Shown: positions 8,955 through 63,952 of the stretch, one piece after another
Layout of the letters: the number at the start of each line of letters is the position of its first letter
How positions within the stretch are numbered: position 1 is the stretch's first letter
Assembly (NCBI GenBank): GCA_963816185.1
Contig: CAWFJJ010000021.1
Coordinates: 53,269-117,268 of the forward strand
Reading direction: 5' to 3'
Source: Thermoanaerobaculia bacterium
GTDB taxonomy: Bacteria; Acidobacteriota; Thermoanaerobaculia; UBA5066
Length of the DNA: 64,000 nt
Position numbers and translations under genes: made by a program
The notes under the pieces: generated by a model
Databases searched by the model: none
Told to the model about the DNA's origin: nothing
What the model saw: the letters and a program-made list of their open reading frames with translations, nothing else

Positions 8955-10169
8955 TCACCCGAAAAGGACGCCGAGAAGCCCGCCTGCGAGGACGAGCCAG
9001 GCCGTGTTGATTCTCACGGCCGCGAGAATCGCGACGCTCACGAGAAAGAGCGCGATCGTCGGGCCGTTCGTCAGCGCGGGCCGCGCGAATTGAAGCGTCA
9101 CGGACCCCATCAGCGCGAGCGCCGCGACGTTCACGCCGTCGAGAAACGCACCCAGGACCTTCGACTGCCGCAGCCGGGGCACGAAAGGGCCCATGACGAA
9201 GACCAGGGCGAACGCGGGAAGGAAGATCCCGAGCGTCGCGACCCCGGCGCCCTTCAGACCCCCGAGCACGTAGCCGATGAACGTCGCGGTGGACAGCAGC
9301 GGCCCCGGCGTGAACTGGCCGACGGCGACGGCATCGAGGAGCTGCCCGCTCGTGAGCCAGTGCCAGCGCTCGACGAGATCGGCCTTCAGATAGGCGAGCA
9401 GCACGTAGCCGCTGCCGAACAGCACGGCACCGGTCTTCAGGAAGAAGAGGAAGAGGCTGGTAAGAGAGAAGGGCGAAAGAGGAGCGCCGAGGGAGAAGAG
9501 GGGGACGAAGAGGGATTTCTTGGAAAGAGGAAGAGAAGATTTCCTAGAAAGTGAATTGGGCGGGGCGCCGTCGACGCGCTCCGGCGCGTGCGGCGCAGCG
9601 GCACCGCCGCCTCTTCCCCTTCTAAGAAAATCCTCAGACACCATCGCCAGAATCGAGACACACCCTGAAACGAGCAGCAGGAGAAGCTCGTTGACGAAGA
9701 AAGTGGCGGCAAGGGCGGCGAGTCCCAATGCCAGAAGGAACCGGCTTTTCACCGCCGTGCGGCCGAGGCTGACGAGCGCCTGCGCGATGAGCGCGAGGAC
9801 CACGGGCTTGATGCCGTCGAAGAAATGCGGAAACGCGGGCAGAGAGCCGAAGCGCACGTAGGCCCACGCAAAGGCGGTCACGAGGAAGGTCGCGGGCAGA
9901 AGGAAGCCGACTCCGGCGACGAGAAGCCCCGCCCAACCTCCGCGTGCATGCCCGATGAAGAGCGCCATCTTGGTGGAGTTCGGTCCTGGCGCGAGGTTCG
10001 TCGCACCGAGGAGGTCGAGAAACTCCTCGCGTGTCATCCACGCGCGCCGCGTCACGACCTCGTGCTCCATCATCGAGATGTGGGCGGCGGGCCCGCCGAA
10101 GGCCGTCGCGCCGAGGCGCAGGAAGAGGATGGCGAGGTCCTTCAGGTCGGCGGGGTTCCCTCTCGCCAT
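8955..10169 (-). CDS. chrA: Chromate efflux transporter (long-chain CHR)
   Basis: AFGGP and FGSG motifs with two PGP motifs in duplicated CHR domains; unusually long inter-domain linker. Confidence 0.93.
   Translation of the reverse strand: MARGNPADLKDLAILFLRLGATAFGGPAAHISMMEHEVVTRRAWMTREEFLDLLGATNLAPGPNSTKMALFIGHARGGWAGLLVAGVGFLLPATFLVTAFAWAYVRFGSLPAFPHFFDGIKPVVLALIAQALVSLGRTAVKSRFLLALGLAALAATFFVNELLLLLVSGCVSILAMVSEDFLRRGRGGGAAAPHAPERVDGAPPNSLSRKSSLPLSKKSLFVPLFSLGAPLSPFSLTSLFLFFLKTGAVLFGSGYVLLAYLKADLVERWHWLTSGQLLDAVAVGQFTPGPLLSTATFIGYVLGGLKGAGVATLGIFLPAFALVFVMGPFVPRLRQSKVLGAFLDGVNVAALALMGSVTLQFARPALTNGPTIALFLVSVAILAAVRINTAWLVLAGGLLGVLFG
9514..9632. repeat. Three copies of the dispersed AT-rich motif inside the chrA linker
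   Basis: GATTTCTTGGAAAG (9514 +), GATTTCCTAGAAAG (9538 +), GATTTTCTTAGAAGG (9632-9618 -). Confidence 0.75.
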
Positions 10170-10221
10170 CGTCCCGATTATGGGCGGGCGGCGGCCGGCG
10201 CCGCCGCACTAAGATCCCACC

Positions 10222-12600
10222 GTGATCGGGGAAGTCCTCGCGCACTACCGCATCGCGGAGCGCCTCGGTGAAGGCGGGATGGGAGAGGTCTTCCGCGCCG
10301 AGGACCTCAAGCTCCGGCGACCCGTCGCCCTGAAGGTCCTGCGCGGCGCGGAGGATTCGGAAGGCCGCCTGTTGCGCGAGGCGCGTTTCGCGTCGCAGCT
10401 CAACCACCCGAACATCGCGGTCGTCTATGACGTCGACACCGTGGAGCGCGATGGACGGAGGCAGAGCTTCATTGCGATGGAGTATGTCGCGGGGCGCACG
10501 CTGTCGGCGCTCCTCAAGGAGCGCGCGCCGGATGTCTCCAAATCGGTCGACATCGTCCTGCAGGTCGCCGATGCCCTCGCGGCCGCGCACGCGCGAGGGG
10601 TCGTCCACCGCGATGTCAAGCCCGGCAACATCATGCTGGACGGGAGGGGGCGCGTGAAGGTCCTGGATTTCGGCCTCGCGGCCTTCCGCCCCGTGCCGGG
10701 CGAGGGGAGCGAGACCTGGAGCCCGATCGGCGCTGACCCGACGCGCTCGACCCCCGGCTCCGTGCTCGGGACCGTCGCGTACATGTCGCCCGAGCAGGCC
10801 CTGGGCCGCGACGTCGACGCGCGGACGGACGTCTTCTCGCTGGGCGTCGTGCTCTGGGAGCTGCTCGCCGGCCGGCGGCCGTTCGAGGGCGCGAACACGG
10901 TCGCCGTCATCGACGCGCTGCTTCACGCGGAGCCGCGTTCGCTGACGCGGCTCAATCCGGCGGTTCCTCGCGAGCTGGAAACCCTGGTCCTGAAGATGCT
11001 CGCGAAGGAACGCGACCGCCGCACGACGATGCGCGATGTCGCGCGTGAGCTCTCGGCTCTGGCGGGCGGCTCGCCGGGGGCGGTCGCGCCCCCGGTCTCC
11101 TCCTCCCCGGCCGAGAACGCGATCGCCGTCCTCGCGTTCTCCAACATCACGCAGAACGCCGAGGACAACTGGCTCGGAACCGGAATCATGGAGACGGTCA
11201 CCGCCGACATGAAGAACGTGCCCGGCCTTTCCGTGATCGGCTGCGAGCGCGTCTGCGAGGTGGAGAAGCGGCTGACCGGCGAAACGGCGCGGGGCGCGAG
11301 CGAGCTCGCGATCCGGCTCGGGCGCGAGGTGGGCGCGCGGCGCGTCGTGACGGGCGGCTTCCAGAGCGTCGGGGAGGTCATGCGGATCACGGCGCGCGTG
11401 ACGGACGTCGAGTCCGGCGAGGTCGTGACGACCGTGAAGGTGGACGGCGGCCGGAGCGATCTCTTCGCCCTGCAGGACCGGATCGTCACGGAGCTCGCCA
11501 AAGCCATGCACCTCGCGTCGAATCCCGCCGGGAAGGAGGCCGAGGAGACGCACGTGCTCGACGCGTACGAGGCGTATTCCAAGGGCCTCATCAACCTTCG
11601 GGCCGAGAGCCGGGAGTCCGTCGACCGGGCGATCCTCTTCTTCGAGCGTGCCGTGGCCCTCGATCCGCTCTATGCCCGCGCGTGGCTCTCGCTCGGCGAA
11701 GCCTACGAGGTGAAGGCCACGGACCTCGCGATGCCGGAGCTGCTCGAGAAGGCCATGGCGAGCTTCGGAAAATGCCTCGCCCTCCAGCCGCGCCTCGCGC
11801 GCGGGTGGAAGGAGCTCGGGGGCGCGCTCGTGGACATCGGCAGCGTGGACAAGGGGCTCGACGCGATTCGCCGGTCTCTGGAGCTCGACCCGGACGACGC
11901 CGCGGCGCATGCGGCGCTGGCGCGCGCCCACTTCATCGGCACCGGGCGGTTTCAGGACGCGGTGGAAGCCTTCGAACGGGCTCTCGCCCTGAATCCGCAG
12001 GGAGGCTGGTATGCGCTTCAGCTCGCACACGTCTCGGCTCTGCTGAGGGATTTCCCCCGCGCCGAGCGCGCGGCGAGGCAGGCCATCGAGCTCCAGGAGA
12101 GGGGGCTTTCGGGTCGCGAAGGGATCGTCATCGTGGGCTCTTACATGAAGCTCGGGCAGATCCGCGCCCTCCAGGGCCGGCCCGCGGAGGCCCTCGAAGC
12201 GTACGAGAAGGAGCTCTCCTTCCTGCGGCGCGTCGACCACGCGCTGAAGGACCGGGCGGTCATCGAGCTGCACACGCGAATTGGGAGCGCGCATCTCGCT
12301 CTGGGACATCCCGAGGACGCCCGCCGGGCGCTCATGCTCGCCGTCGGGGCCTTCGAGGACCGACTCCGGGCCGGCGCGGACGAGCCGTTTACGCGGTACT
12401 ACGTCGCCGCGGCGTGGGCCCTCCTCGGCGACGCGGAGCGCTCGCTGGACGTCCTCGAAGCCGCGGCGGCGATGCGTCGCGTCTACGTCGTGGAACGCGC
12501 CCGCATCGATCCGGATTTCGAGAGCCTGAGGAGCGAGCCGCGCTTCGTACGGCTTCTCGAAAGGTCACGCGACCCGGCGAACGGGGTGCGCAACCCGTGA
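10222..12600 (+). CDS. Hanks-type Ser/Thr kinase with TolB-N/FlgO-like domain and TPR repeats
   Basis: GEGGMG, VALK, HRDVKPGN, DFG, YMSPEQ; IAVLAFSN domain; TPRs; DPDFESLRSEPRF tail. Confidence 0.93.
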   Translation: MIGEVLAHYRIAERLGEGGMGEVFRAEDLKLRRPVALKVLRGAEDSEGRLLREARFASQLNHPNIAVVYDVDTVERDGRRQSFIAMEYVAGRTLSALLKERAPDVSKSVDIVLQVADALAAAHARGVVHRDVKPGNIMLDGRGRVKVLDFGLAAFRPVPGEGSETWSPIGADPTRSTPGSVLGTVAYMSPEQALGRDVDARTDVFSLGVVLWELLAGRRPFEGANTVAVIDALLHAEPRSLTRLNPAVPRELETLVLKMLAKERDRRTTMRDVARELSALAGGSPGAVAPPVSSSPAENAIAVLAFSNITQNAEDNWLGTGIMETVTADMKNVPGLSVIGCERVCEVEKRLTGETARGASELAIRLGREVGARRVVTGGFQSVGEVMRITARVTDVESGEVVTTVKVDGGRSDLFALQDRIVTELAKAMHLASNPAGKEAEETHVLDAYEAYSKGLINLRAESRESVDRAILFFERAVALDPLYARAWLSLGEAYEVKATDLAMPELLEKAMASFGKCLALQPRLARGWKELGGALVDIGSVDKGLDAIRRSLELDPDDAAAHAALARAHFIGTGRFQDAVEAFERALALNPQGGWYALQLAHVSALLRDFPRAERAARQAIELQERGLSGREGIVIVGSYMKLGQIRALQGRPAEALEAYEKELSFLRRVDHALKDRAVIELHTRIGSAHLALGHPEDARRALMLAVGAFEDRLRAGADEPFTRYYVAAAWALLGDAERSLDVLEAAAAMRRVYVVERARIDPDFESLRSEPRFVRLLERSRDPANGVRNP

Positions 12601-15266
12601 GCCTCACGCAGGGAACCCGGCTTGGCCCCTACGAGGTTCTGAGCCCGCTTGGCGCAGGCGGCATGGGCGAGGTGTACCGCGCGAGGGACTCGAAGTTGGG
12701 CCGCGAAGTGGCGATCAAGGTCCTCCCGGAGGAGTTCTTCGAAGAGGAGGAACGGATCGCCCGCTTCAAACAGGAGGCGAAGTCGCTGGCCGCGGTGAGC
12801 CACCCGCACATCGCGGCTCTCTACTCTTTCGAGGAGATCTCCGGGCGCCACCTTCTCGTCATGGAGCTGGTCGACGGAGAGACCCTGGCGGATCGGCTGC
12901 TGAAGGGGCCGCTCCCTCCGGATCGGGTTTTGAAAACCGGAATCGAGATCGCGTCGGCGCTGGACGCGGCTCATCGAGCGGGCATCATCCACCGGGACCT
13001 GAAACCGGGAAACGTCATGTTGACGAGGTCGGGCGTGAAGCTGCTCGACTTCGGTCTGGCGAAGGCGCTCGCTCCCGAGGGTCCGGTCGAGAGCCTCACG
13101 TCCGCCCCGACGACCGCCCGGGACGTGACGCGCGAGGGAGAGGTCCTCGGCACGCTTTCCTACATGGCGCCGGAGCAGCTGGAAGGGAGAAAGCCCGATT
13201 CGCGTACGGACATTTTCGCTCTCGGCGCGACGCTCTACGAGACGGCGACCAGCAGAAAGGCATTCACGGGAACGAGCCAGGCGTCTCTGATCACGGCGAT
13301 CATGACGTCGGAGCCGCAGGCGATCTCCGCCGTCCAGCCGATGACGCCGCCGGCGCTGGACCGCGTCGTGAAGACCTGCCTCGCCAAGGACCCCGACGAT
13401 CGCTGGCAGTCCGCGCACGACGTCAAGCTCCAGCTACAGTCGATCGCCGACGGCGGGTCACAGGCGGGATTCCCGGCGACTCTCGTCGCTCCGCGCAAGA
13501 GCCGGGGGCGGCTGGCCTGGTCCCTCGCGGGCATCTGCCTGGCTGCCGCGGTGGTTCTCGCCGTCGTTCACTTCCGGCAGGCCCCGATCGAGGCGCGTCC
13601 GACCCGCTTTTCCCTTTTGCCGCCGGAGCAGACGACTTTCGCCATCGGGCCAGCGGCTCCTCAGGCCGCCGTGTCACCCGACGGCCATTACGTTGCTTTC
13701 GCGGCCACGACCTCGGATCGGAAGACTTACCTCTGGCTTCGTCCGCTCGATTCGCTCGCTGCTCAGAAGCTGGCCGGAACGGAGGAAGCAGGCCTTCCAT
13801 TCTGGTCTCCGGATAGTCGCTTCATCGGGTTTTTCGCGCAGGGAAAGTTGAAGAAGATCGACATTTACGGAGGTGCTCCTCAGACCCTGTGCGATGCACC
13901 CGCGGCTAATGGCGGGACCTGGAACCACGAAGGGGTGATTGTCTTCGCCCCGCTTCGTGAAGGCGCACTGGCTCGCATCTCCGCCGCGGGTGGAATTCCG
14001 GCCGCCGCGACGGCACTCGACCGACGTCGGCAGGAGACCGGCCACGCGTGGCCCCAGTTTCTGCCGGATGGCCGCCGCTTCCTCTACCTCGCCTTGAGCG
14101 GACAACGAGAGAACCGCGGCCTCTACGTCGGTTCGCTCGGCTCCGAAGGGCCGCGACGCGTGCTGAAGACCGAAGTGAGGGCAGCTTATACACCCCCGGG
14201 ATATCTGCTCTTCCTGCAGCAGGGGACGCTGATGGCCCAGCGGTTCAATCCTGATCGCTTCCAGCTCACCGGCGAACCGGTCGCCGTCGCCGAAGGTGTG
14301 GCTTACAACTCGTTCAATGGCCGGAACACCTTCAACGTCTCGGAGAACGGCGTGCTCGTCTATCGGACTGGCCGCCCCGGGGGGCTGCCGACGAGCGAGC
14401 TGGTGTGGTTCGATCGCGGGGGAAAGCGGATCGGATCGGTCGAGGGACCCGGCTTGTACCTGCGTCCGGCGCTCTCACCGGACGGAAAACGCATCGCTGT
14501 GGAGCGCCTCGATCCCCGGACGGGGGCCTTCGATATTTGGCTCGTCGACCCGGCACGCTCCAGCGTTCTACGCCTCACGTTCGGTTCGTCCAACCAGACG
14601 CACCCTGTTTGGTCGCCGGACGGGAGTCGGATCGTCTTCACTTCCGACCGAGATGGCACGAGCAACCTGTATCTGAAGAACTCGAGCGGAGCCGGTAGCG
14701 AGGAGCTGCTGCTTCGGTCCGACGCGGCGAAATACGTCATGGACTGGTCTCCCGACGGGCGGTTCATCGCCTATGAGAGGCAGGATCCGAAAACCGGAAC
14801 GGATCTTTGGGTGTTGCCGCTTTTCGGAGATCGCAAACCGGTTCCGTTTCTGCAAACCGGGTCCAACGAAGGTCAAGGGCAATTCTCCCCGGATGGACGA
14901 TGGATGGCTTATGTCTCGGATGAGTCGGGAAGAGGAGAGGTTTACGTGCAGACCTTCCCTCCTTCCGGCGGCAAGTGGCAGATCTCGGCCGCCGGCGGTG
15001 CCTATCCGAGATGGCGGCGCGACGGGAAGGAGCTCTTCTATGTTGCCGCGGGCCAAAAGCTCATGGCGGTGGCGTTGCAGACCGGTTCTACGCTCCAGGC
15101 CGGTCGACCGCAGGCGCTCTGCGAGCCCCGTTTTTTTCAGCCCATAATTCCTTACACCGTTTCAGCCGACGGTCAGCGTTTTCTCGTCAACACTCCTCTC
15201 GAGGAGGACAACTCTTCACCGGTGACCGTGGTCCTGAACTGGACGGCGGAGCTGAAGAAGAGATGA
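12597..15266 (+). CDS. Hanks-type Ser/Thr kinase with one TM and PD40/TolB beta-propeller
   Basis: Start is the GTG at 12597 ([13 protein letters not shown]) overlapping the upstream stop; [20 protein letters not shown]; repeated WSPDG/SPDG. Confidence 0.93.
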
Positions 15267-15301
15267 CTCTCGTGCCGCGAAGGGCGTGAGAAGGGCGGTC
15301 G

Positions 15302-17129: not shown

Positions 17130-17915
17130 ATGTCGTCCTGTTTGTCCTTTCTTTCCAAGAAGATCTCTCTGACGGCGGCGCTCGTGCTCCTCGCCGGCTC
17201 GACACGCGGCGAGGGATCTCCGTCCGCCCGCGTCCCTGTCCTGGTCGAGCTGTTCACGTCAGAAGGCTGCTCGAGCTGTCCGCCCGCCGACGCTGCGCTC
17301 GCGCGTCTCGAGCGGACGCAGCCGGTCACCGGCGCCGAAATCGTCGCGCTGTCGCTGCACGTCGACTACTGGAACCGGCTCGGCTGGGCCGATCCGTTCT
17401 CGTCCGCCTCGTTCAGCGCGCGCCAGAGCGGCTACAGCCGCGCGTGGGGCGTGGACCGCGTCTACACGCCGCAGATCGTCGTGGATGGCCGCGTCGAGCT
17501 TCTGGGAAGTGACGAGGCCAAGGCTCGTCGGGTCGTCGAAGAAGCTGCGCGTCTGCCGAAGGCCGCGATCGAGCTCGCTTCGGCCCAGTCGGGAGGCCAT
17601 GCCGCGCTCCGGATTCGAGTGCGCGCCCTGCCGTCCGTGACGCCAGGCGATACGGCCGAGCTTCTCCTCGCGATCACGGAAGACCGGCTCGCGAACGACG
17701 TACCGCGGGGCGAGAACGCGGGACGGCGACTCGTTCACAGCGCCGTCGTGCGAGATCTCGCCGTCGTCGGTCCGCTCCAGCCGGGCGCTCCTTTCGAGAC
17801 GCAGCGTCCGCTACACCTCAAGGCGAACTGGAAGAGAAACGCGCTTCACGCCGTGGTCTTTGTTCAGGAGAGAAGGAGCCGGAAGGTTCTGGGCGTCGCG
17901 CGAATATCAATTTAG
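17130..17915 (+). CDS. Secreted DUF1223 thioredoxin-like protein
   Basis: Signal peptide, VELFTSEGCSSCPPAD, HVDYW, YTPQ, RGENAG. Confidence 0.9.
   Translation: MSSCLSFLSKKISLTAALVLLAGSTRGEGSPSARVPVLVELFTSEGCSSCPPADAALARLERTQPVTGAEIVALSLHVDYWNRLGWADPFSSASFSARQSGYSRAWGVDRVYTPQIVVDGRVELLGSDEAKARRVVEEAARLPKAAIELASAQSGGHAALRIRVRALPSVTPGDTAELLLAITEDRLANDVPRGENAGRRLVHSAVVRDLAVVGPLQPGAPFETQRPLHLKANWKRNALHAVVFVQERRSRKVLGVARISI
17151..17165 (-). repeat. Dispersed AT-rich motif copy in a signal-peptide region
   Basis: GATCTTCTTGGAAAG on the minus strand with purine-rich flanks. Confidence 0.65.
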
Positions 17916-17956: not shown

Positions 17957-20440
17957 ATGCGCATCTGGCTCTCTCTTTCCTTTCTAAGCAAACTCTCTTT
18001 CTTTCTTCTTCTTTCTTTTCCCCTTACCGCCGCCGACCGCATCATCCCGTCGCGCCTGCCGTCCGGCGAGATCCAGCTTCCGAACGGCCGCCTGCTGACC
18101 CCCACGGGCACGCAGACGGAGGTTTCGCCGTACCCGTTCGCGCTCACGCTCACCCCGGACGGAACCCGGCTCCTCGTCGCGTGCACGGGAGCGGACGACC
18201 AGTCTCTTCACCTTCTGAATGCCGCCTCAGGGAAGCCTCTTTTCAAGCAGCCGCTCCCGCACTCATGGCTCGGCCTCGCGCTGTCGCCGGACGGGGCGCG
18301 GGTCTACGTCGCGGGTGCCAAAGAGAGGAACGTCCTCGTCTATCGCCTCGAGCGGGATCGTTTCGTCGCGGAGGACCCGATCTCGCTGAAACGAGGCGAC
18401 GACCGGCCGAATCTCGACGCGACGCCGGGAGGCCTTGCGCTCTCGCCGGACGGCACCGCGCTCTGGGTCGCGCGCATTCTCGCGGATGACGTCGTGAAGA
18501 TCGATCTCGCGACGAAGAAGGTCGTCGCCATGGTTCCTGCGGGCGCCCATCCCTATCGGCCGGTCTTCTCTTCGGACGGGAAGATCCTCGCCCTCGCGGC
18601 TTGGGGCGGGGCGGCCGTGACCCTCATCGATCCGGTGAAGGCGATCGGGGCGGGCTCGGTGAAGACGGCGGATCACCCCGGGGATCTCGCCTTTTCGCCC
18701 GACTCGAAGACTCTTTTTGTCGCCGAGGCGAACCGGAACCTCGTCGCGGCCGTGGACGTCGCATCACGGTCCGTCGTCCGGCAGATCTCCGTCGCGTTCG
18801 GGCCGGACGGCCCGGGGACGCCCTCGGCCGAGTCGATGCCCGACGGCTCGACGCCGAATGCGCTTGCCCTTGCGCGCGACGGGAAGACCCTCTTCGTCGC
18901 GAACGCGGACGACGACGCGGTCGCGGTCGTGGATCTTTCCCCCGGCCCCGCTCGGGCACGCGCAAAGGGCTTCATTCCTTCAGGCTGGTATCCCGACGCG
19001 CTGGCCCTGTCGCGCGACGGGAAGACGCTGTGGGTCGCGAACGCCAAGGGCGGCGGCTCGTGGGAGAACTCGAAGGGCGGACCAAATCCGACGAAACCGA
19101 AGAACGGCAAACCGACGCGCCTCACGCGGATGATCCCAGGGACCGTCTCCCGCATTTCGGTTCCTCCCGCGGGAGAGCTCGCGGCGCTCACGACCCGGGC
19201 GTACGCGAACCGCCGGCCCGCGGCGCGTGGAGCGTTGCGGGCGCGTGCGTCGGCCGTCGTGCCGGCCGCGTCCGGCGGCGCCTCGCCGATCAAGCACGTC
19301 GTCTACGTCATCCGCGAGAACCGCACGTACGACCAGGTTCTCGGCGACCTCCCGAAAGGCAACGGCGATCCGTCGCTCGTCCTCTTCGGGCGCGACGTCA
19401 CGCCGAACGCGCACGCGCTCGCCGAGGAATACGTCACGCTGGACAACTTCTACTGCGACGCCGAGGTCTCCGCGGACGGCCACAACTGGTCGATGGGCGC
19501 GTACGCGACGGACTTCGTGGAGAAGGTCTGGCCTCCGAACTACGGCCACCACGGCTTCAGCTATCTCTTCGAGGGAAACGATCCCGCGGCGTATCCGACG
19601 AACGGCTACCTCTGGGACGCGGCGGCGCGCGCCGGACTCTCGTTGCGCAATTACGGGGAGTTCACGGGCATTGCGTCCGAGACGAACGTGCCTCAGGAGC
19701 TGGGGCTCACGCACGGGCAGGAGGGCGCGCTCAGGAGCAACACGAGTCCTTACTACCCGGGGTTCGACACGGAGGTCCTCGACAACGCGCGCGTCGACAT
19801 CTGGCTGAAGGAGTTCGCGCTCTTCGTGAAGAAGAAGGAGATGCCGCGCCTCATGATCGTGCGGCTCGGCAACGACCATACGGTGGGAACGAAGAGAGGC
19901 GGGAAGACGCCGCGCGCGATGGTGGCCGAGAACGACGTCGCCCTCGGCCGGCTCGTCGAGGCGCTCTCGCACTCGCCCTTCTGGAGCGAGACGGCGGTCT
20001 TCGTCGTCGAGGACGACGCCCAGAACGGCTCCGACCACGTGGACGCGCATCGCACGGTCGCTCTCGCCGTTTCGCCGTACACGCGGCGCGGGGCGGTGGA
20101 CTCGACGATGTATTCCACGACGTCCATGCTCCGCACGATGGAGCTCATCCTCGGGCTCAAGCCCATGTCGCAGCACGACGCGGGCGCGACGCCGATGTCG
20201 GCCGCGTTCACGGACGTGCCGAACGCGGCGCCCTTCGTCCATCGCGACACGGCGATCCCGTTCTACGAGATGAATCCTCCGGGCGCGCCGATGCAGGCGC
20301 TCGTGGACACGTGGGACTTCTCGAAAGAAGACGCCGCCCCCGACGTGCCGTTCAACGAAGCGATCTGGAGGAGCGTCAAGGGCGCGAATTCCGCGATGCC
20401 TCCCCCGGTCAACGCCGCGTTCGTGCGAAGCCGTCCCTGA
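17957..20440 (+). CDS. YncE-like beta-propeller / phosphoesterase (alkaline phosphatase superfamily) protein
   Basis: Signal peptide; YVTN-like repeats; HVVYVIRENRTYDQVLGD, SADGHNW, NDHT, EDDAQNGSDHVDAHR. Confidence 0.9.
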   Translation: MRIWLSLSFLSKLSFFLLLSFPLTAADRIIPSRLPSGEIQLPNGRLLTPTGTQTEVSPYPFALTLTPDGTRLLVACTGADDQSLHLLNAASGKPLFKQPLPHSWLGLALSPDGARVYVAGAKERNVLVYRLERDRFVAEDPISLKRGDDRPNLDATPGGLALSPDGTALWVARILADDVVKIDLATKKVVAMVPAGAHPYRPVFSSDGKILALAAWGGAAVTLIDPVKAIGAGSVKTADHPGDLAFSPDSKTLFVAEANRNLVAAVDVASRSVVRQISVAFGPDGPGTPSAESMPDGSTPNALALARDGKTLFVANADDDAVAVVDLSPGPARARAKGFIPSGWYPDALALSRDGKTLWVANAKGGGSWENSKGGPNPTKPKNGKPTRLTRMIPGTVSRISVPPAGELAALTTRAYANRRPAARGALRARASAVVPAASGGASPIKHVVYVIRENRTYDQVLGDLPKGNGDPSLVLFGRDVTPNAHALAEEYVTLDNFYCDAEVSADGHNWSMGAYATDFVEKVWPPNYGHHGFSYLFEGNDPAAYPTNGYLWDAAARAGLSLRNYGEFTGIASETNVPQELGLTHGQEGALRSNTSPYYPGFDTEVLDNARVDIWLKEFALFVKKKEMPRLMIVRLGNDHTVGTKRGGKTPRAMVAENDVALGRLVEALSHSPFWSETAVFVVEDDAQNGSDHVDAHRTVALAVSPYTRRGAVDSTMYSTTSMLRTMELILGLKPMSQHDAGATPMSAAFTDVPNAAPFVHRDTAIPFYEMNPPGAPMQALVDTWDFSKEDAAPDVPFNEAIWRSVKGANSAMPPPVNAAFVRSRP
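17979..17995 (-). repeat. Dispersed AT-rich motif copy in a signal-peptide region
   Basis: GAGTTTGCTTAGAAAGG (minus) embedded in a ~55-nt polypyrimidine tract. Confidence 0.6.
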
Positions 20441-26046: not shown

Positions 26047-28136
26047 ATGAGCGCCGCCGCACCGCCGCCCGCGCCGCGCGCCGCGCGCGGGGCTGCTCTC
26101 GCGGTGCTCGTCCTCCTGGTCGTGACCGTCGACACGCGCTCGTACGGCCTCATCCCCGACGGGAAAGAGATGCTCTCGGTTGCCGCGGCCGTGACGCGCT
26201 TTCTCGAGATCGGCGTGTCGCGAGACTTCGTCAACGCTCCGCGCCGGCCGGCGGGCGACGCCGTTTCACGCTATGGCATGGGGCTGTCCCTCGCCGAGGC
26301 CGTGCCCGCGACGGCGGCGCGTGTTCTTCGCGCGTTGGCACCCTCGGTTCCCTCGGCTCCCGTCTTCGTGATGCTGCCGATCGCATGCCTCGTCGCAGCC
26401 GCATGGGCGACGGCGCGTTCCTTGATTCACCTCCGCGCATCGCCTGGGTGGGCCGCGGCCTCGGGAGCGGGCCTCGTCGTCGCGACGCCGCTCTGGGGCT
26501 ACGCGGCGAGCGATTACGGCGAGCCGCTCCAGGCGCTGTGCGTCGCGCTCGCCGTCCTCGGCGTCGTCGAGCTGAGCGTGGAACCCGCGTCGCGGCGGTG
26601 GCAGATCGTCCTCGGAGTCGCCGCCGGCTTCGCGATTCTCACGAAGACGCTGCTGCTCGTCGTGGTCGCCCCGCTTCTTCTCGCAGCGATTGTTTCGCGC
26701 GCCGTGAGGTCCGAAGAGGATCTCTTAGAAGGGAAGAGAGAGAAGAGAAAGATTTCTTAGAGCGTAAGAGGGGAGACGGGAGTCGGCGTGCGAGTCCCGC
26801 AGCACGAGAGCGGCGGGCGCGGACGCGACGTGGCAAGAACGCGGCGGGCGGTCGCCTTGGGCCGCCATGGCCTTTGCTCATTTCATTCGCAGGAATTCTC
26901 CTTCTCTGGGCGTTCTTCGAATTCGTCCGCTTCGGCAAGCTTTTCGGAGGGTATGCGGGGGAGACGTTCACGTATCCCTTCTTCACGGGGCTCCTCAGGC
27001 TGACGGTCTTCCCGAACAAGGGGCTCATCTGGTACGCGCCGATCGTCCTCCTCGCGCCGTTCGGCTTTCTCGTCCTCCGCCGGCGCGACGCGCGGCTCGC
27101 GTTCGCCTGCCTTGCTTGCGCCGCCGCGCTTCTTCTCACCACGCCCGCGTGGTGGGCGTGGGACGGACAGGCGGGATGGGGGCCGCGCCTTCTCCTGCCC
27201 GCGTTGCCGCCGCTGCTCGTCTTCGCGGGTCTCGGGTGCTCGAGTTCAGCACGGCCGGGGCGCCTCGCCGGAGCGATCGCGCTCGTCCTGGGCGCCGGCG
27301 TGAATCTGCTCGGCGCCCTCGTGCCGTTTCCCGCCGTCTACGCGCTTTCGTCCGTCGTGCCGCCTCAGCCGATCTCCGAAGAGCGCGCGGCGGGCACCCA
27401 GTACGAGATCGAACGCGGACGGGATGGAATCCTCCGGGCGACGGCCCCCCATCACCTCTCGCTCACGCCGTCCTGGTCGCCGATCCGGGTTCACGCGCTG
27501 CTCCTTGCGGCGAAGCTGCGGGGCGGGGCGGCGGAGACTCTGGCGAAGGAAGGTCTCCCGGAGCTCGATCCGCCGTTCAGACCGATGTTGCCGAAGGAGC
27601 CCGCCCCCGCGCTCGTTCTCGCGCTGAGGCCCGTTCGCCTCGGGTGGGGACGCGAATTCTTCGAAAGGGAAGCGGGATCTTCGGATCCGTGGGGTGACGC
27701 GATTCGGGATCAGATCGTCCGGGCGATCGACATGAGGAACTTCAGCCGGGCGCAGGCAATCGGGGAAGAGCTGCTCGGGAAGAAGAAGGGCCCGGATTCG
27801 GATTCTTCGAATGACCCCCTCATAGTCGCCCTGGTCGCCGAGGCGCTGCGCCTCGGTGGCGGCAGGGGCGGGGACGCCGACAGCGACGCAGGCGACTCGG
27901 GCGCTGCAGCCGCCCTCTCTTACCTTTCCAAGAAATCTCTTTCTCTTTCTTCCTCTTCCGCGATCTCCTGCCACCCCTGGGTCCTCTTCGTTCGCTCGAT
28001 GGCCGCTCCTCCCGGCGATCTCTCGTGTCTGCCCGAGGGCCAACGCGGGAGCTTCGCGCGCAGCCTCGATCTCGCGCGCGTGCGCGCCTGGCCGCTCACG
28101 GCGTGGGTGCGGGCGGCCCGGACGGGGAGGCCGTAG
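26047..28136 (+). CDS. GT-C-fold membrane glycosyltransferase-like protein, split by a frameshift near 26740
   Basis: N-half in ORF 26047-26760 (SRYGMG, YGEP, TK), C-half in the frame ending 28136 (KGLIWYAP, WWAWDGQAGWGPRLLLP); removing one AG unit at 26735-26742 fuses them. Confidence 0.7.
26719..26764 (+). repeat. Tandem pair of the dispersed AT-rich motif
   Basis: GATCTCTTAGAAGG (26719) and GATTTCTTAGAGCG (26751) separated by a pure purine tract. Confidence 0.75.
27923..27937 (-). repeat. Dispersed AT-rich motif copy
   Basis: GATTTCTTGGAAAGG (minus) with pyrimidine-tract flanks on the plus strand. Confidence 0.7.
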
Positions 28137-29991
28137 GCGGCGCCGCCGGGCGGAGGCGCAACAAGAGCTGCGTGTCGCCGAAAGGCTCGATCGAAACGGC
28201 GCGCGCTTCGAGCCCCCTGCGGAGCGGCGGCAGCCAGCCGCGGAGCCAAACGAACTTCGGGTAGCTCTCGGTGTTTTTCTCGGCCGCGGCCGCCACGTCC
28301 CAGAGGAAGCGCGAAAAGAAGACCGCGTCGACCGGCGCATCTCCCGCCGTGACCTGCCCGGCGATCCCCACGGCGCGCGCGCCGGACTCGTCCACCATGA
28401 GCGAGGCGAGGCCGACACGCCCCAAATCGCCGCGCCGGACGCGCTCGAAAATCTTCCCCTCGTCCTGACCCCAGTCCACGTTCGAGTCCGAAAGAATCGC
28501 CGGGACACCGGCGGGACCTCCGCAAAAGAGGTTTCCGAACGAGATCTCCCGGCCGATTCGAAGCGCGCCCTCACCCGCCGCCGCGAGGACGACGGCGGCG
28601 AGCGCGATCGCGAGCGTATGGCGCCGGCGAACGAGAGTCCGGAGAGCTCCCGCCGCTGCGGCGATCGCGAAGGGGACCACGGGAAACGCGTGGCGAACGC
28701 CGATGTTCACGTTCGAGGCGCAAGCCGCGAAGAGGTAAGCGCCGCCGAGAGCGGCCGGAAGGCAGGCGCGCGCGGCGAGAAGACCGCGACTGCGCGCCCC
28801 CCTGGAGGCAAGAACGCCCGCTGCGACGAAAGCCGCCAGGACGAAGAGAACGGTCGCCGTCGTGAGCTTGATCCCGAGGGCGACCGGGAAATAGAGCGCG
28901 TAGCCCTTTCCGGAGATCTCGCCGAAGAAGTAATTGAAGCGCTCGCCGGGGCCGGCGACACCCTGCACGAAAAGCAGCCCCGCGCCGTAGGCCGCGACCG
29001 ACTTCGGAAGCATGCCTGCCAGCGCCAGGGCGGCTCGCTCCTGCGGCAGCCCGGCGAACTCGCGCGCGATTCCCGCGCGAAAAGCGGAATCGCTCGTCCC
29101 GGCGAACGTGAGGAACTGGATGAGAAAGAGGGTGACGAGGGCGGGTCCAACGAGAAATGCCAGAACAGAAGGGGAGGTTCGAAGAGAATTTCTTAGAAGG
29201 TGAAGAGGGCCGGAGGGGAGTGCGACCTCTTTTCTGAAATTCGGGGCTGCTGATGCAGCCCCGATAGTTGCAAATCTTCTTCCCGAATGGCCGATGTCAA
29301 GGGCGCGCTTCGCGCGCCGCGCAGCGGTCTTCGACCCTTGACGTCGATCATTCGGGAAATACGGTCTCCGACCAGAAAACCTCCCGGTGCTCTCTGACCC
29401 AAGGCGGACCACCGCAATGGCAGCGAAAACCGCGAGGAACGGGAAAGCAGAGTATTTCGACGCCGTCGCGAAGCCGTAGAGAACTCCGCTCCCGACGAGC
29501 CAGCGGAGGTCGGGCTTCCTTCTTCCCGTGCCCCGCGCGGCGTATTCCAGCGCGAGCGCCGCGGCCACGAGGAAGAACGTCACGAGGATGTCGCTCTGGA
29601 CGAGGGTACCGTGCCCGCGGAGAGTGGGCTCGATGGCGACGAGGGCCGCGGCGGCGAGGCCGGTAAGGTCGCCTGCGAAGGTACGCGCGAGGAGCCCGGT
29701 CGCCAGGACGAGGCCCGCGAAGATGAAAGGCATCGGCGCCCGGCCGGCGCGCGTTTCGTCGATCTCCATCGCCGGCGTCTCCCGCGGGAGGAAGACGCCG
29801 GCAAGCACCTTCATCAGGACGGGGTGCTCGAAGTTCGAGACCATGCCCGGCCCATAGCGCCACTCGCGGGCGGCCGTGAGGTGCGCGGGCTCGTCCGACG
29901 TCGTCCAGAGAGAGAACCGTGCGCGTTCGGCGCCGAGAAAGGCGAGGAGGACGACGGCGGCGAGAGCCGCCGCGAACCGCGCGCGCGACAT
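28096..29991 (-). CDS. ArnT/PMT_2-like GT-C glycosyltransferase with an internal ~80-aa insert
   Basis: TSDEPAH, NFEHPVLMK, HGTLVQSD, SKYSA, NIGVRH, DSNVDWGQD; start ATG 29991. Confidence 0.85.
   Translation of the reverse strand: MSRARFAAALAAVVLLAFLGAERARFSLWTTSDEPAHLTAAREWRYGPGMVSNFEHPVLMKVLAGVFLPRETPAMEIDETRAGRAPMPFIFAGLVLATGLLARTFAGDLTGLAAAALVAIEPTLRGHGTLVQSDILVTFFLVAAALALEYAARGTGRRKPDLRWLVGSGVLYGFATASKYSAFPFLAVFAAIAVVRLGSESTGRFSGRRPYFPNDRRQGSKTAARRAKRALDIGHSGRRFATIGAASAAPNFRKEVALPSGPLHLLRNSLRTSPSVLAFLVGPALVTLFLIQFLTFAGTSDSAFRAGIAREFAGLPQERAALALAGMLPKSVAAYGAGLLFVQGVAGPGERFNYFFGEISGKGYALYFPVALGIKLTTATVLFVLAAFVAAGVLASRGARSRGLLAARACLPAALGGAYLFAACASNVNIGVRHAFPVVPFAIAAAAGALRTLVRRRHTLAIALAAVVLAAAGEGALRIGREISFGNLFCGGPAGVPAILSDSNVDWGQDEGKIFERVRRGDLGRVGLASLMVDESGARAVGIAGQVTAGDAPVDAVFFSRFLWDVAAAAEKNTESYPKFVWLRGWLPPLRRGLEARAVSIEPFGDTQLLLRLRPAAPPTASPSGPPAPTP
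29186..29200 (+). repeat. Dispersed AT-rich motif copy
   Basis: GAATTTCTTAGAAGG followed by TGAAGAG. Confidence 0.75.
29241..29358. repeat. Intragenic palindromic element: perfect hairpin plus branched cruciform
   Basis: TCGGGGCTGC-tgat-GCAGCCCCGA (29241-29264); 24-bp outer stem 29280-29303/29335-29358 with 3 mismatches enclosing triloop hairpins. Confidence 0.8.
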
Positions 29992-36007: not shown

Positions 36008-37293
36008 GCGCTCCACGCCGCCTCCCGCGGGGCCGTCTTGCGGGAAATCTCCGCGTTCCGGGCAGCAAGAGCCTGACGAACCGCGCTCTCGTCGCGGCCG
36101 CGCTCGCGGAAGGGGAGAGCGAGCTGCTCGACCCGCTGGATTCCACGGATACCCGTGCGTTGGCTTCTGCGCTCGAGCTGCTCGGAGCGGAGATTTTCTT
36201 AGAAGGTGTGAGGTGGCGGGTCGTCGGACCGATCGGCTCGAGCGGCCACTCGAACTCGGAGGTTCGCATCGACGTCGGAGATGCCGGAACGCCGGCGCGT
36301 TTTCTTGCGCCCCTCCTCGCGGCCGTGCCGGGACGTTATGTTCTCGACGGCAGCGCCCGGATGCGGGAACGGCCGATGTCTCCCCTTTTCGAAGCAATTC
36401 AAGCCCTGGGAGCCGATGTCAGGTTTCTCGGGCGGGAAGGCTTTCTCCCCGCCGCGATCCGCGGCGGCTCGCTGCACGGCGGGCGGGTGAAGATTCGCGG
36501 CGACGTCTCCTCGCAATTCCTGTCGGCGCTCATGCTCGTCTCGCCCCTCGTGCCGGGCGGCATCGAGCTCGAGGTCGAAGGGCCGATCTCGTCGGCGTCC
36601 TACCTCGCTCTGACGCGCCGTGTCCTGGACGGCTTCGGAGCTTCTCCGGGAGGCGGTTACCGGCCGGCGCGCTTTCGCGTGAGCGGCGACGACTCGGCCG
36701 CCTGTTTTCCGATCGCGGGCGCGATCGTTTCTGGAGGACGCGTGACGCTGCGCGGTCTCGCGCGAGAGTCGGAGCAGCCGGACGCGGCGTTCCGTGCGTG
36801 GGCGGCTGCCGCGGGCGGAAGGCTCGAGTGGGAGAGAGCGCCGGACGGCGAGGCGGCGCTCACGGTGAGAGGGCCCGAGGGCGGCGCGAACACGCTCCTC
36901 CTCCCCGTCGACGCGGACATGGACGCCGCGCCGGATGCCGCGCTTCCTCTCGCAGCGCTCGTCGCGTTCGCCGCCGGCACGTCGCGCCTCGTGGGCGTCG
37001 CCCGCCTGCGAGGGAAGGAATCCGACCGCCTCGCCGCCGCGCTCGATCTCCTTGCGGGCGCGGGCTCGACCGCACGGGAGGAGAGAGACCGACACGGCCC
37101 CGTCCTCGTCGTGGACGGCCCGAGGGGAGTGCCGCGAGCCGCGAATTTCGTCGCGCACGGAGATCACCGAGTCGCCATGGCGGCCGCGGTTCTCGCGCTC
37201 GCCCTGCCCGCCGGCTCGACGCTGGACGACCCGGGCGTCGTGGCGAAATCGTGGCCGGGGTTCTGGGAAGCGTGGGAGGGTCTCATCGGGTAG
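36004..37293 (+). CDS. aroA: 3-phosphoshikimate 1-carboxyvinyltransferase
   Basis: PGSKSLTNR, AGTPARF, SSQFLS, KESDR, DHRVAM, KSWPGF; TTG 36004 overlaps the lpxH stop. Confidence 0.95.
   Translation: MSAPRRLPRGRLAGNLRVPGSKSLTNRALVAAALAEGESELLDPLDSTDTRALASALELLGAEIFLEGVRWRVVGPIGSSGHSNSEVRIDVGDAGTPARFLAPLLAAVPGRYVLDGSARMRERPMSPLFEAIQALGADVRFLGREGFLPAAIRGGSLHGGRVKIRGDVSSQFLSALMLVSPLVPGGIELEVEGPISSASYLALTRRVLDGFGASPGGGYRPARFRVSGDDSAACFPIAGAIVSGGRVTLRGLARESEQPDAAFRAWAAAAGGRLEWERAPDGEAALTVRGPEGGANTLLLPVDADMDAAPDAALPLAALVAFAAGTSRLVGVARLRGKESDRLAAALDLLAGAGSTAREERDRHGPVLVVDGPRGVPRAANFVAHGDHRVAMAAAVLALALPAGSTLDDPGVVAKSWPGFWEAWEGLIG
36192..36206 (+). repeat. Dispersed AT-rich motif copy inside aroA
   Basis: GATTTTCTTAGAAGG, identical to the copy at 9632-9618; forces a rare TTA codon (EIFLEG). 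Confidence 0.75.
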
Positions 37294-62022: not shown

Positions 62023-62032
62023 GGGGCGGATC

Positions 62033-63952
62033 TTAGCGTCTGCCGCCGAGGAGGATCTCCTGCTTTCCCGTCGCGGGATCGAGGCGCACGAGGGCGCCGG
62101 AGGCGTCGAGGAAGAGCCTCGAGGCGGGAAGCCCGGCCTCGGCGGGCGGAAGGACGGGGGACCACGAGAATCGGTCTGCCGGGACTAGGCCATCCGCAAG
62201 ATGAGAGACCGCGCCCGTCACCACGTCCACGGCTGCGACCTCCCAGGAGCGTTCGTCATTGTTTCGAAAGGGACTTAGGGAAATGGCGACGCGCCGGGGC
62301 GCGACTTCGCCCCCGAGGGCGACCGCGCTCGCGGGGCCCAGCTCCACATGGCGCGAGGGTGTTCTCTCACCTTCTAAGAAGATCTTGAGAACTCCCCTCC
62401 CGCCCGCGACGCCGGCGACGGCCATGCGCCCGCCCGACAAGAAGCGCATTTCCGGTCTCTCGAGGTCCTCTGAGAGAGTGGCGAGGAGCGTGCCTGTCCG
62501 GCCGTCGTGGAGTGTGAGCCGTTTCTTTTCCCTTCCGACGAGATACCTCCCGTCCTCGCTCAGGTACAGGTAGGAGAAGTACTCGCGCTCGAGGTGGCCT
62601 GTCACGAGAGATTTCTTCGAGGGCAGGGAGATTTCGTCGATCTCGAGAGGTTCCGGCGGGCTGATCGTGAACGGGTATCGTCGAAGGACGTCCTCGCCGA
62701 CGAATGTAATGAGCCTCGTGGGTCTCCTTTCGACCCGAAGAGCCAAGACCTGTCGCGCGTGCGAGGGATTGGAGATGTCGTAGGCGGCGAGGTTTTGTCC
62801 GTCGAGGACTGCGAGCCGTCGGCCCGAGGGGGACAGCGCGAAATTCGCCCAGACGTTCGTTTCGATATCCGAAACGGCTACAGCGGGTTTGGTCGCGTCG
62901 AGAGCCGCAATCCGAACGGCGCCGGTCCTCGTCCATTCGAAGAATCCCGGATCCGCTTGGAAGAATGCCCCGCGGGTGCCATCGGCGGAGAAGGCAGTGG
63001 TCTGCAGTAACGAGTGCGGACGCTTGATGAACCGGCCCGAGGTCGTGTCATAGAGAAACATGCCCTCTGCGGAGCCGCGCGCGGGGACACGTCCGGAGAT
63101 GCTCACCCACGTGCCGTGCGGGGCCGCCTGAATGCTGTCGACCACGCTGAGGTCTTTCGGCGCCGCCGCGTTCACCCACCAGGCGAGGCCGGCAAGCGGA
63201 AGGGTGAGGAGAGCCACGACCCCCCAGAGCGTCGCCGAGAGCGCGCCGTGCGAGCGGCGCGCATCCGTGCGCCCGTCCGCTACCTGCACGTAGCTCGCAG
63301 CGAGGAGAATCGCAATCAGGGCGACAGGCAGCCACCAGAGAGCGCGCTCGGGCGAACGCCATTGCTCGTAGAAGCTCCAAAACCCGGAAAGGAAAAGACT
63401 TCGAAGGCAGAGTGTGATCGCGACGGCGAAGAACGCGGCAAGGACGAAGTCCAGAACGATCCATGCGGACTTCAGGCGCGCCATCGAGGCCACGACGTGC
63501 GCGAAGAGGAGCAGAAGGAGAATTCCTAGAATGGTCGAGACGAGTGGCTTTGGCGTGTCGAGGCGGACCGTCGCGAACGAGAACGCCCTGTTGCCTTCCA
63601 CGAAGAAAACCGGCGCCGCGGCGAGTAGAGCGCAACCGATGGAGATCAGGAGCGCGGCGAGTAGCTTTCCGGCCCAGATCGAGGCGGCGGGCAGAGGCCG
63701 GGAAAAGTAGAAGCTGAGGCGTTTTTCGGCGATGTCGCCGACGAGGATCGTCGCTCCGAAAACGAGCGGAAAAGCCACCGCGATCGTGATCGTCAGAAGG
63801 AGCATGGCCACGGACCGTGCGTCGTGCGCGTTTCCCCGCAAGGCGGGAAGGAGCGGAAATCCGAGCGGGAGGACCCCCGCGACGAATGCCCCGAGAAAGA
63901 GGAGCTTCCGCTCCGCGATCTCCCGCGCCGCGACGGCGAGAGTGCCTTTCAT
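62033..63952 (-). CDS. Membrane protein: ABC-2 permease-like N-terminus fused to a beta-propeller-like domain
   Basis: About 7 TM with FYFSRP...WAGKL permease-like motif, then FSADG/LSPSG/LSEDG repeats; coupled to an upstream ORF. Confidence 0.7.
   Translation of the reverse strand: MKGTLAVAAREIAERKLLFLGAFVAGVLPLGFPLLPALRGNAHDARSVAMLLLTITIAVAFPLVFGATILVGDIAEKRLSFYFSRPLPAASIWAGKLLAALLISIGCALLAAAPVFFVEGNRAFSFATVRLDTPKPLVSTILGILLLLLFAHVVASMARLKSAWIVLDFVLAAFFAVAITLCLRSLFLSGFWSFYEQWRSPERALWWLPVALIAILLAASYVQVADGRTDARRSHGALSATLWGVVALLTLPLAGLAWWVNAAAPKDLSVVDSIQAAPHGTWVSISGRVPARGSAEGMFLYDTTSGRFIKRPHSLLQTTAFSADGTRGAFFQADPGFFEWTRTGAVRIAALDATKPAVAVSDIETNVWANFALSPSGRRLAVLDGQNLAAYDISNPSHARQVLALRVERRPTRLITFVGEDVLRRYPFTISPPEPLEIDEISLPSKKSLVTGHLEREYFSYLYLSEDGRYLVGREKKRLTLHDGRTGTLLATLSEDLERPEMRFLSGGRMAVAGVAGGRGVLKIFLEGERTPSRHVELGPASAVALGGEVAPRRVAISLSPFRNNDERSWEVAAVDVVTGAVSHLADGLVPADRFSWSPVLPPAEAGLPASRLFLDASGALVRLDPATGKQEILLGGRR
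62370..62384 (-). repeat. Dispersed AT-rich motif copy
   Basis: GATCTTCTTAGAAGG followed by TGAGAG (minus); encodes KIFLEGE with a TTA codon. Confidence 0.75.

Follow-up and report, generated by a model that had tools for sequence, protein, structure and literature searches.

A genus-restricted DNA word of a Thermoanaerobaculia bacterium recurs hundreds of times and prefers facing pairs with a modal spacing

Why should one short word recur inside unrelated genes of a GC-rich bacterial genome? The question is raised by a stretch of 64,000 nucleotides (the window) from the Thermoanaerobaculia bacterium assembly GCA_963816185.1 (contig CAWFJJ010000021.1), which corresponds to C21:53269-117268 of the genome designated G000 here, comprising 5,088,052 bases in 30 contigs with 67% G+C and a completeness of 94.9%. 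An earlier interpretation made from the letters of the window (the sequence-only reading) had listed 11 copies of a word built around TTCTTAGAAGG, had placed all of them within coding sequences and had proposed a DNA-uptake or nucleoid-organizing signal. The exact 11-mer is present four times in the window, as had been claimed, and is well above chance, with no copy found in 100 dinucleotide-preserving shuffles; the related word TTCTNAGAA also occurs four times, whereas the shuffles average 0.34 copies and never exceed 2.

Across the whole of G000 the exact 11-mer is found 201 times (98 on the forward and 103 on the reverse strand), where an order-4 Markov model of the same genome predicts 1.1 copies and the same letters reversed occur 11 times. 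Under this model ATTTCTTAGAA is observed 133 times with 0.25 expected, and words of the same family account for most of the top observed/expected ratios among 11-mers seen at least 40 times, the other top-ranked words being only homopolymeric A/T and one unrelated repeat family. The Markov model was preferred for this ranking, as the reversed-word control for k-mers is confounded by GATC/CTAG asymmetry. Alignment of the 201 copies gave a consensus comprised of a purine-rich stretch of 10-20 nucleotides, followed by GATTTCTTAGAAGG and (T/G)GAAGAGGG, or in short form a purine-rich tract followed by GATTTCTTAGAAGGTGAAGAGGG. The word is 14-18 bases long and its core, GATTTCTTAGAAGGTGA, about 16-18 bp, with the purine-rich flank on the 5' side, and a test for dyad symmetry returned an asymmetric arrangement (GAT..TTCTTAGAA..GGTGAA), not a palindromic dimer-type site. 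A 26-nucleotide matrix built from 294 genome copies identified 714 sites in G000 at a threshold of at least 14 bits, compared with 94 for the reversed control matrix, and each of the 11 copies listed by the sequence-only reading scored between 20 and 40 bits on it. A search of the window against Rfam at the gathering threshold produced no matches, and none of the literature matches listed for the motif 11-mers concerns a bacterial repeat in the portions of text available. The 47 viral contigs with one 17-mer match each were judged likely to be chance matches in AT-rich phages.

Two copies of the word prefer a fixed head-to-head geometry. The matrix sites fall into 451 clusters, of which 197 contain a facing pair, a single one is back-to-back only, 233 are single sites and 20 are of other kinds. 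The same preference is seen among exact cores, where neighbors within 250 bp are arranged +- 48 times, -+ once, ++ eight times and -- three times, and tandem duplication of an arm places ++ or -- copies 25-51 bp apart. The spacing of the pairs peaks at 72-74 bp (24 pairs), with a second peak at 91 bp that derives largely from a family of Ser/Thr kinase paralogues. The pair pattern was found in 28 of the 29 genomes of the genus, the exception being a genome that is 56% complete, and among the listed pairs from 14 other genus genomes (two of them covered in part only) 37 of 75 distinct pairs measure 83-86 bp overall within an allowed range of 62-92 bp. The interiors enclosed by the arms are GC-rich and mutually unrelated, with a similar counterpart for only 21 of 211 (owing to kinase paralogues, copies of a nested 140-bp repeat and a small number of duplicates), and are no more folded than their shuffles (mean z of -0.57, n = 44). 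The arms extend weakly inward as GGTGAAT(G/A)GGG ... CCC(C)A(C/T)TCACC. This facing-pair architecture with its modal spacing is predicted by neither the uptake nor the nucleoid model of the sequence-only reading.

In the kinase paralogues, two variant words face each other at a distance of 91 bp within the catalytic domain (..EFFEGEERRQRFEREAKLLASLNHPNIAAIHSFEEIPG..), the variant copies encoding FFEGEE and SFEEIPG. The sites lie on C24 near 602899, 605666, 616381 and 620204, and at C23:2635, C23:5304, C28:51683, C8:329058 and C6:41511. The exact word is present in two of the paralogues, and the family inflates the counts of the TTCTTCGAAGG variant.

The word is subject to a directional force at the level of DNA that creates and keeps copies, independently of strand or transcription. 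Exact copies within predicted genes number 101, far above the mean of 1.35 (maximum 3) obtained in 20 synonymous-codon shuffles that leave the proteins unchanged, and above the 0.05 copies left by a shuffle of codon order. The codons that the word imposes are the rarest of G000 (TTA 0.26, CTA 0.64 and AGA 2.16 per 1000), with 32 of all 326 in-frame TTA codons lying in TTC-TTA-GAA, and the embedded copies are read as FLEG, xLRR/K, PSKK or LLR(N/K). The copies embedded in frame are divided almost equally between sense (37) and antisense (35) orientations. The claim that rare codons are forced in several frames is thus upheld, and the survival of the excess in the protein-preserving shuffle, the strand balance and the rare codons kept in aroA (below) support the further claim that the pressure acts on DNA, and not on protein or RNA.

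How many copies are actually translated is a separate matter. None of the stop codons TAA, TAG and TGA can occur, on either strand, in a tract made up solely of purines or solely of pyrimidines, and the only possible stops lie inside the word itself, in one frame of three per strand; consequently, an open reading frame (ORF) that runs through a motif region is not evidence of coding, and gene calling in these metagenome-assembled genomes is misled by the stop-free ORFs that such flanks make. The assertion that all copies lie inside coding sequences therefore holds in part: all are in long ORFs and some are truly coding, but several are found at junctions with no coding signal. Frame plots lacked a coding signal at 9500-9650, 17100-17300, 17920-18040, 26710-26880 and 27900-28070. 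Coding is supported at 36196, where a single Pfam match spans the aroA site, and at 9517/9541/9618, where the translated unit is a loop joining two chromate-transporter halves; at 62370 the open frame is the sole support. The copies at 17151 and 17980 could plausibly encode signal-peptide N termini, judging from their translations, and those at 26722/26754, 27924 and 29190 are located at junctions where the coding signal is absent.

For the genome as a whole, about 108 of the 201 exact copies are genic and 92 intergenic, a split that is only rough because the gene finder is crude, with codon log-odds trained on G000 itself, over-extended starts and some non-coding stretches included. Another measure comes from the flanks of 339 units, collected with a more permissive pattern, which lets in some ordinary coding words as well. 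For units with coding flanks on both sides, on one strand, single sites preserve the frame in 72 instances and break it in four, and the corresponding numbers for pairs are 13 and nine. These counts indicate that a real minority of sites is embedded in ORFs. The remaining single sites lie at gene ends, with the purine-flank side directed toward the gene 112 times (58 gene ends and 54 gene starts) and the GGTGAA side 49 times.

One copy maintained within a protein-coding gene is that of aroA, in which the Pfam EPSP_synthase match is unbroken across residues 9-423, through the motif site. The exact word is found there in 12 of the 29 genus genomes and its individual rare codons are more widespread still, with ATT in 22, GAA in 24 and GGT in 25 of the 29. 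A motif-poor genome of the sister genus (g12) has GAG GTT CTC TTC GAG GGC at this site, of equal length, and more distant relatives have other residues and GC-rich codons. The codon comparison therefore shows that the copy arose by substitutions against codon bias and was then kept. Similarly, a TsaC/Sua5-like gene contains the word without an insertion (..FWPGPLTLILSKKSSVPSSVTAGLDTVA.., with CTT TCT AAG AAA TCT), in a segment that is presumably conserved in its family.

The phyletic range of the word is narrow. Exact copies number 37-267 in each of the 28 other genomes of the genus, 1-31 in the eight genomes of the sister genus, 0-1 in 26 genomes covering the eight remaining genera of the family and 0-2 in 16 genomes from two other families of the order, with one match in the unpublished genome G030. 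The word is again among the top-ranked 11-mers in 400 kb of a copy-rich genome of the sister genus; a stretch of equal length from a single-copy genome of that genus is dominated by another family of palindromic words, and a genome of genus g18 has nothing comparable among its over-represented 11-mers. Along the large contigs of G000 there are 398 clusters with a mean gap of 10.8 kb (about one cluster per 11 kb). They are clumped, with a coefficient of variation of 1.42 compared with 1.13-1.19 (±0.07) in two null models, and gaps extend to 131-143 kb. The orientation of the word shows no bias with respect to the sign of the GC skew (97/97 and 40/36) and, in a test for polar words of the Chi or KOPS (FtsK-orienting polar sequence) type, does not follow the direction of replication.

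What kind of system would produce such a distribution? We tentatively place first the possibility that the word is recognized, as double-stranded DNA, by a lineage-specific, sequence-specific protein that pairs sites head to head, a protein that would be restricted to this genus and part of the sister genus. Each asymmetric site would be bound by one molecule of this putative protein, and two bound molecules would contact one another across the ∼60 bp between the sites, so that the DNA would be bent or wrapped and each unit would become a small fixed fold or chromosomal boundary. The units would tend toward the edges of genes or protein domains, with the stop-free, translatable purine/pyrimidine side toward the gene and the stop-rich GGTGAATAG side away from it. 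A fuller version is doubtful when taken as a whole, namely that the facing pairs act as a chromosomal "bracket", in which two asymmetric sites are clamped head to head across ∼73 bp at gene or protein-domain boundaries, tolerated there or translated in frame, several hundred of them having been built after loss of a RAYT/REP system (repetitive extragenic palindromes (REP) and their associated tyrosine transposase (RAYT)).

Several observations weigh against binding by a pairing protein. Copy number varies 7-fold within the genus, as would be expected of a drive or a selfish element more than of a site whose structural role is fixed, and single sites make up 233 of the 451 clusters, or about half. 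No helical phasing was detected, as the pair spacing has neither a 10.5-bp nor a 3-bp period; a period of ∼20 bp was significant overall (p < 0.001 at T = 20) and marginal for distances of at least 100 bp, which leave out the main peak (p of ∼0.02-0.08), with 25 periods having been tried and the values left uncorrected. A search among ParB_N genes gave no candidate protein: most genomes in each of the ten genera have two copies, a number that does not track the motif. We know of no nucleoid protein with ∼450 high-information asymmetric sites. Moreover, the unit in the chromate-transporter gene chrA is inserted relative to the outgroups, as a mobile element would be, and all properties of the motif except the pair geometry are also expected of an uptake signal. 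The finding itself is real and not ordinary, and the facing pairs with their modal spacing make it more specific and open to sharper tests than the sequence-only reading had supposed; the proposed function is no more than plausible.

The alternative that the word is a DNA uptake signal is almost as probable, neither of the two being more likely than not. A competence receptor would prefer word-bearing DNA, recombination would spread the copies, and the facing pairs at gene ends would be a secondary use. A DNA-level, strand-independent force is the classical signature of uptake, although it is equally expected for the sites of a DNA-binding protein. The strong excess, the equality of strands without replication bias, and the intragenic copies that use rare codons at tolerated positions in several frames (those of aroA and the TsaC-like gene having arisen without insertion) all agree with uptake, as do the conservation of positions among species, the extension of the consensus into the flanks, the restriction to one genus with variable copy number and the occurrence of inverted pairs. 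In each of these respects the motif resembles the DNA uptake sequences (DUS) of Neisseriaceae and the uptake signal sequences (USS) of Pasteurellaceae: clade-specific short words with a ∼100-fold or greater excess in both orientations, with copies made by codon choice at tolerated gene positions and conserved between species, a consensus that continues into the flanks and inverted pairs at gene ends. Genes for ComEC, DprA and two ComEA-like loci are present in G000; one ComEA-like gene has a facing pair upstream, at C29:11904, and the other has a motif copy between its two HHH_3 domains.

Other features fit uptake poorly. The clumped clusters, one per ∼11 kb, compare with an even spacing of about one per 1-2 kb in the classical systems, a density ∼10-20 times higher. 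The 72-74-bp spacing and the orientation rule (197:1 in favor of facing sites) have no role in uptake and set the motif apart from DUS and USS, and its flank has a purine/pyrimidine strand asymmetry where DUS and USS have AT tracts. ComEC is found in 57 of 63 genomes of the family with or without the motif, which it does not track because it is family-wide, and no report of natural transformation in Acidobacteriota, the phylum of the motif, was found in the literature searched. Pairing by a bound protein is ranked above uptake because the pair geometry, low density and clumping agree better with a protein by which two asymmetric sites are joined.

The history of individual pairs bears on a second alternative, in which the facing copies are the old terminal inverted repeats of a non-autonomous element, akin to a miniature inverted-repeat transposable element (MITE) or a REPIN (a paired REP element), whose interiors have been randomized and some of which have been adopted by the host. 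In the chrA ORF (8955-10169 on the reverse strand) Pfam recognizes two Chromate_transp stretches with the motif unit between them. The unit was compared in 18 orthologues and consists of a forward arm, a variable, indel-rich interior and either one or two reverse arms that carry a pyrimidine tail, the number of arm copies in the gene orientation being two in some orthologues and one in others. Fifteen of the 18 left arms retain CTTAGAA, the same number of right arms retain TTCTAAGAA, and the two arms together can be recognized in 15 of the 18 species, with an interior that varies in both sequence and length; the ORF remains open through the unit in 16 of 18. Linkers in the outgroup genera are short (∼50 nucleotides) and lack the motif, and the chrA unit is therefore an insertion or expansion in the genus that is translated as a loop. 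On the question of whether copies arise by point mutation or by insertion, orthologue alignment thus returned both answers, substitution in aroA and insertion or expansion in chrA. At the locus of the PMT_2-type glycosyltransferase, a copy is recognizable in 20 of 23 orthologues (exact in 11), some of which have extra tandem copies, and the interiors vary; the right arm is the variant ..CACCTTCGAAGAAAA.., and the left arm and interior are missing in three of 23, with boundaries that are not clean.

Mobile ends of this kind would account for the discrete length classes of the facing pairs, for the tandem arm duplications and differing arm numbers between orthologues, for the chrA insertion and the loss at three PMT_2 loci, and for the clumped sites with copy numbers that span a 7-fold range within the genus and a 30-fold range within its sister. 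Being stop-free in two of three frames per strand, insertions could survive in genes, as do the Rickettsia palindromic elements. These elements are in-frame repeats of ∼100-150 bp at tolerated gene sites, kept among species, and the chrA unit is similar to them; the motif units differ in conserving only ∼25 bp per end, with unrelated interiors and with some copies that arose without insertion. The last point, exemplified by aroA and the TsaC-like gene, also counts against mobile ends in general, as does the conservation of arms at orthologous sites while the interiors decay, unlike neutral relics. No target-site duplication was detected, direct repeats of 2-9 nucleotides being unenriched at 16 offsets around 15 pairs, and the interiors are unrelated in 190 of 211 pairs; both features separate the units from classical MITEs. 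No transposase lies between more distant facing copies, as judged by ordinary gene sizes only.

The comparison with REP/REPIN-RAYT systems is closer in outline, since these systems also number their copies in the hundreds and arrange them as inverted doublets at a preferred distance around a middle of lower conservation, with singles beside doublets and with copy numbers that differ between relatives. However, the motif core is not a hairpin, the copies are not extragenic only (72 single sites and 13 pairs are in frame, some by point substitution), and RAYT is missing from 25 of the 29 genus genomes. The Y1 (RAYT) transposase gene was not found in G000 and occurs in four of 29 genus genomes, compared with seven of eight in the sister genus and all 17 genomes of the motif-free genus g18, a distribution inverse to that of the motif. 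Where a RAYT locus exists in the genus, that of G055 has a motif copy 456 nucleotides upstream and a pair 1.1 kb downstream, unlike the tight flanking typical of REPs, and those of G014 and G049 have no convincing motif association. The sequence-only reading had named counts no higher than in shuffles, ends of insertion sequences (IS) or MITEs, or the site of a known regulator, as the findings that would overturn it; in G000 the counts are far above those of the shuffles, and there are no IS/MITE ends, target duplications or RAYT. We regard an origin as mobile ends as improbable.

As separate observations on the relatives, the loss of RAYT in the genus coincides with the rise of the motif, and G050, a motif-poor genome of the sister genus (C1:1-400000, loci L258-L277), has its own palindromic word family around AACTGATGGACGTCCATCAGTT. 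There CGTCCATCAGT occurs 24 times in 400 kb, together with three Y1-transposase genes, which may constitute a REP/RAYT system. At the PMT_2 site of the window, a repeat of ∼140 bp (29229-29370) comprises two hairpins (..TTCGGGGCTGCTGATGCAGCCCCGATAG.. and ..CCCGAATGGCCGATGTCAAGGGCGCGC..GACCCTTGACGTCGATCATTCGGG..). It has 50 BLAST matches in G000 at 78-100% identity, ∼20 of them with a motif copy within 110 nucleotides, but is absent from the PMT_2 site in all 23 orthologous loci; copies are present in at least 11 other genus genomes, mostly G007, G012, G052 and G054. This repeat looks like a young MITE or a structured RNA gene.

Facing repeats around a short segment also bring to mind recombination, either as the inverted repeats of a recombinase that flips the segment (invertons, including intragenic ones) or as half-sites of a tyrosine recombinase. 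The many facing repeats with one consensus and short variable segments between them would suit such sites, several lie in or before genes for membrane or secreted proteins, and in-frame pairs keep the ORF open (13 in and nine out of frame between co-directional flanks). The core may also be similar to Xer-type recombinase half-sites. Against this stands the interior orientation, which is identical across the 18 chrA orthologues and those PMT_2 orthologues that can be aligned, although these are consensus assemblies that hide minority forms, and the ∼62 bp between the cores is at or below the lower limit for such recombination. Contigs from four DNA runs over 9401-29400 of the window listed no strand-changing joint at the motif pairs, a result that is uninformative on inversion or excision given a depth of ∼1-6 and short pieces. 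A role as recombination sites appears very unlikely.

In the same set of runs, the contig of run X1 joins 20440 to 21238 of the window, skipping 797 bp (20441-21237) that include a 217-residue ORF (20564-21217 on the reverse strand) with no Pfam match. The skip represents a presence/absence difference in a related strain.

A role at the level of RNA is the least probable of the explanations considered. A transcribed pair would form a long hairpin with a pyrimidine tract, which could terminate transcription in both directions, serve as a target of RNase III or provide a signal for translation. The arms do pair in every fold (a mean of 10.5 of 11 core bases in 44 pairs), with a purine tract before and a pyrimidine tract after the pair in either direction. 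Some forward copies precede a start codon by 8-20 nucleotides, a position at which GAAGAGG might bind ribosomes, and the word resembles the complement of the 16S rRNA 3' end. Nevertheless, intragenic copies are equal on both strands, single sites occur at gene starts and ends alike (54 and 58), and there is no enrichment between convergent genes (one of 25 pairs with both flanks called). Within 9401-29400 of the window no terminator-like site coincides with the motif, and such sites, at 16 in total compared with 12.3 in shuffles, are not in excess. The interiors are unstructured and without an Rfam match, and pairs are found inside conserved ORFs such as chrA and the kinase domains.

The 16S rRNA 3' end with its spacer (C1:445508 onward) reads GGATCACCTCCTTTCTAAGGGATC, to which the reverse complement of the motif, TCACCTTCTAAGAAATC, is similar with a 3-base gap and two changes. 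This resemblance may be due to chance.

Two further groups of abundant or dispersed sites invite comparison. The sites of Noc (NBS), SlmA (SBS), MatP (matS) and ParB (parS) are 12-16 bp long and are, like the motif, scattered through genes and recognized in double-stranded DNA independently of gene orientation, and the motif half ATTTC..GAAA resembles parS and NBS halves. Those sites are dyad-symmetric, number tens per genome and have known proteins, whereas the motif is asymmetric, numbers hundreds and occurs mostly as facing pairs. The highly iterated palindrome HIP1 of cyanobacteria is likewise a hyper-abundant, lineage-specific word that also occurs in genes, has no mobile-element features and is of unsettled function, but it is an 8-bp palindrome present about once per kb, with neither pairs nor flank asymmetry.

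The copies in the window are collected in the table. Two entries at the lower end of the scores call for caution. The membership of the copy at 27657 is uncertain because the TTCTTCGAAAG variant also arises from ordinary FFE coding. The "weaker" copy that the sequence-only reading had noted near 63520 is probably not a member, its 9.9 bits falling in a range that the reversed control matrix reaches as often.

Table. Word copies in the 64-kb window (window coordinates; scores on the 26-nucleotide matrix)
Position	Strand	Form	Score (bits)	Context
9517..9527	+	variant TTCTTGGAAAG	24.6	outer left arm of the chrA-loop unit, extra arm copy
9541..9551	+	variant TTCCTAGAAAG	29.6	inner left arm of the chrA-loop unit
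9618..9628	-	exact copy	37.3	right arm, head-to-head with 9517/9541; ORF 8955-10169 (-)
17151..17161	-	variant	20.1	reads ..LSFLSKKISL.., 5' end of DUF1223 gene (Pfam)
17980..17990	-	TTGCTTAGAAAG with long pyrimidine tail	28.0	reads MRIWLSLSFLSKLSFFLLLSFP; signal-peptide-like N terminus of phosphoesterase/beta-propeller gene, frame plot without coding signal
26722..26732	+	CTCTTAGAAGG	25.6	3' end of ORF 26104-26760, translation ..EEDLLEGKREKRKIS then stop
26754..26764	+	TTCTTAGAGCG, tandem second copy	20.8	TAG within it is the stop codon of ORF 26104-26760
27657..27667	+	weak variant TTCTTCGAAAG	14.5	not in the list of the sequence-only reading
27924..27934	-	TTCTTGGAAAG, purine-rich flank	28.1	gene junction, no coding signal nearby
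29190..29200	+	exact copy, full consensus	40.4	between conserved coding segments of a PMT_2-type membrane glycosyltransferase ORF
36196..36206	+	exact copy	33.1	aroA; GAG ATT TTC TTA GAA GGT = EIFLEG, no insertion
62370..62380	-	exact copy	34.3	in frame, KIFLEGER; ORF 62033-63952 (-), 639 residues, no Pfam match
63523..63533	+	TTCCTAGAATG	9.9	probably not a member

Some other features of the window and genome were observed alongside. The sole sigma-70-like promoter match in 9401-29400 of the window (17030-17059 on the forward strand, ATAACA-18-TATAAT with TG) occupies AT-rich DNA immediately upstream of the DUF1223 gene, the one with a motif copy at its 5' end. An ORF of 1163 residues (51755-55249 on the reverse strand) contains an aminotransferase class I/II domain (residues 13-309) and a PEPcase_2 phosphoenolpyruvate carboxylase domain (residues 512-994), and would be an unusual fusion if it is a single gene. 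In the k-mer counts of G000, runs of 11 A (or T) occur 1073 times with 2.3 expected, which means that the assembly contains long homopolymers, and the word family GCAATGGGAATTG has ∼40 occurrences.

Abundant clade-specific words have previously led to uptake receptors, to RecBCD and Chi, to FtsK and KOPS, and to RAYTs. To our knowledge, no such word system is on record for Acidobacteriota, a phylum that is dominant in soils and for the most part uncultured. The ∼18-bp core, the orientation rule and the preferred spacing of the present motif are sharp enough to fish for its partner, and restriction to one genus and part of another suits phyletic profiling. Should the word prove to be an uptake signal, it would imply natural transformation and species-selective gene flow in soil Acidobacteriota, and would be the first such system outside Proteobacteria. 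Should it instead be a paired binding site, it would represent a new way of marking gene boundaries.

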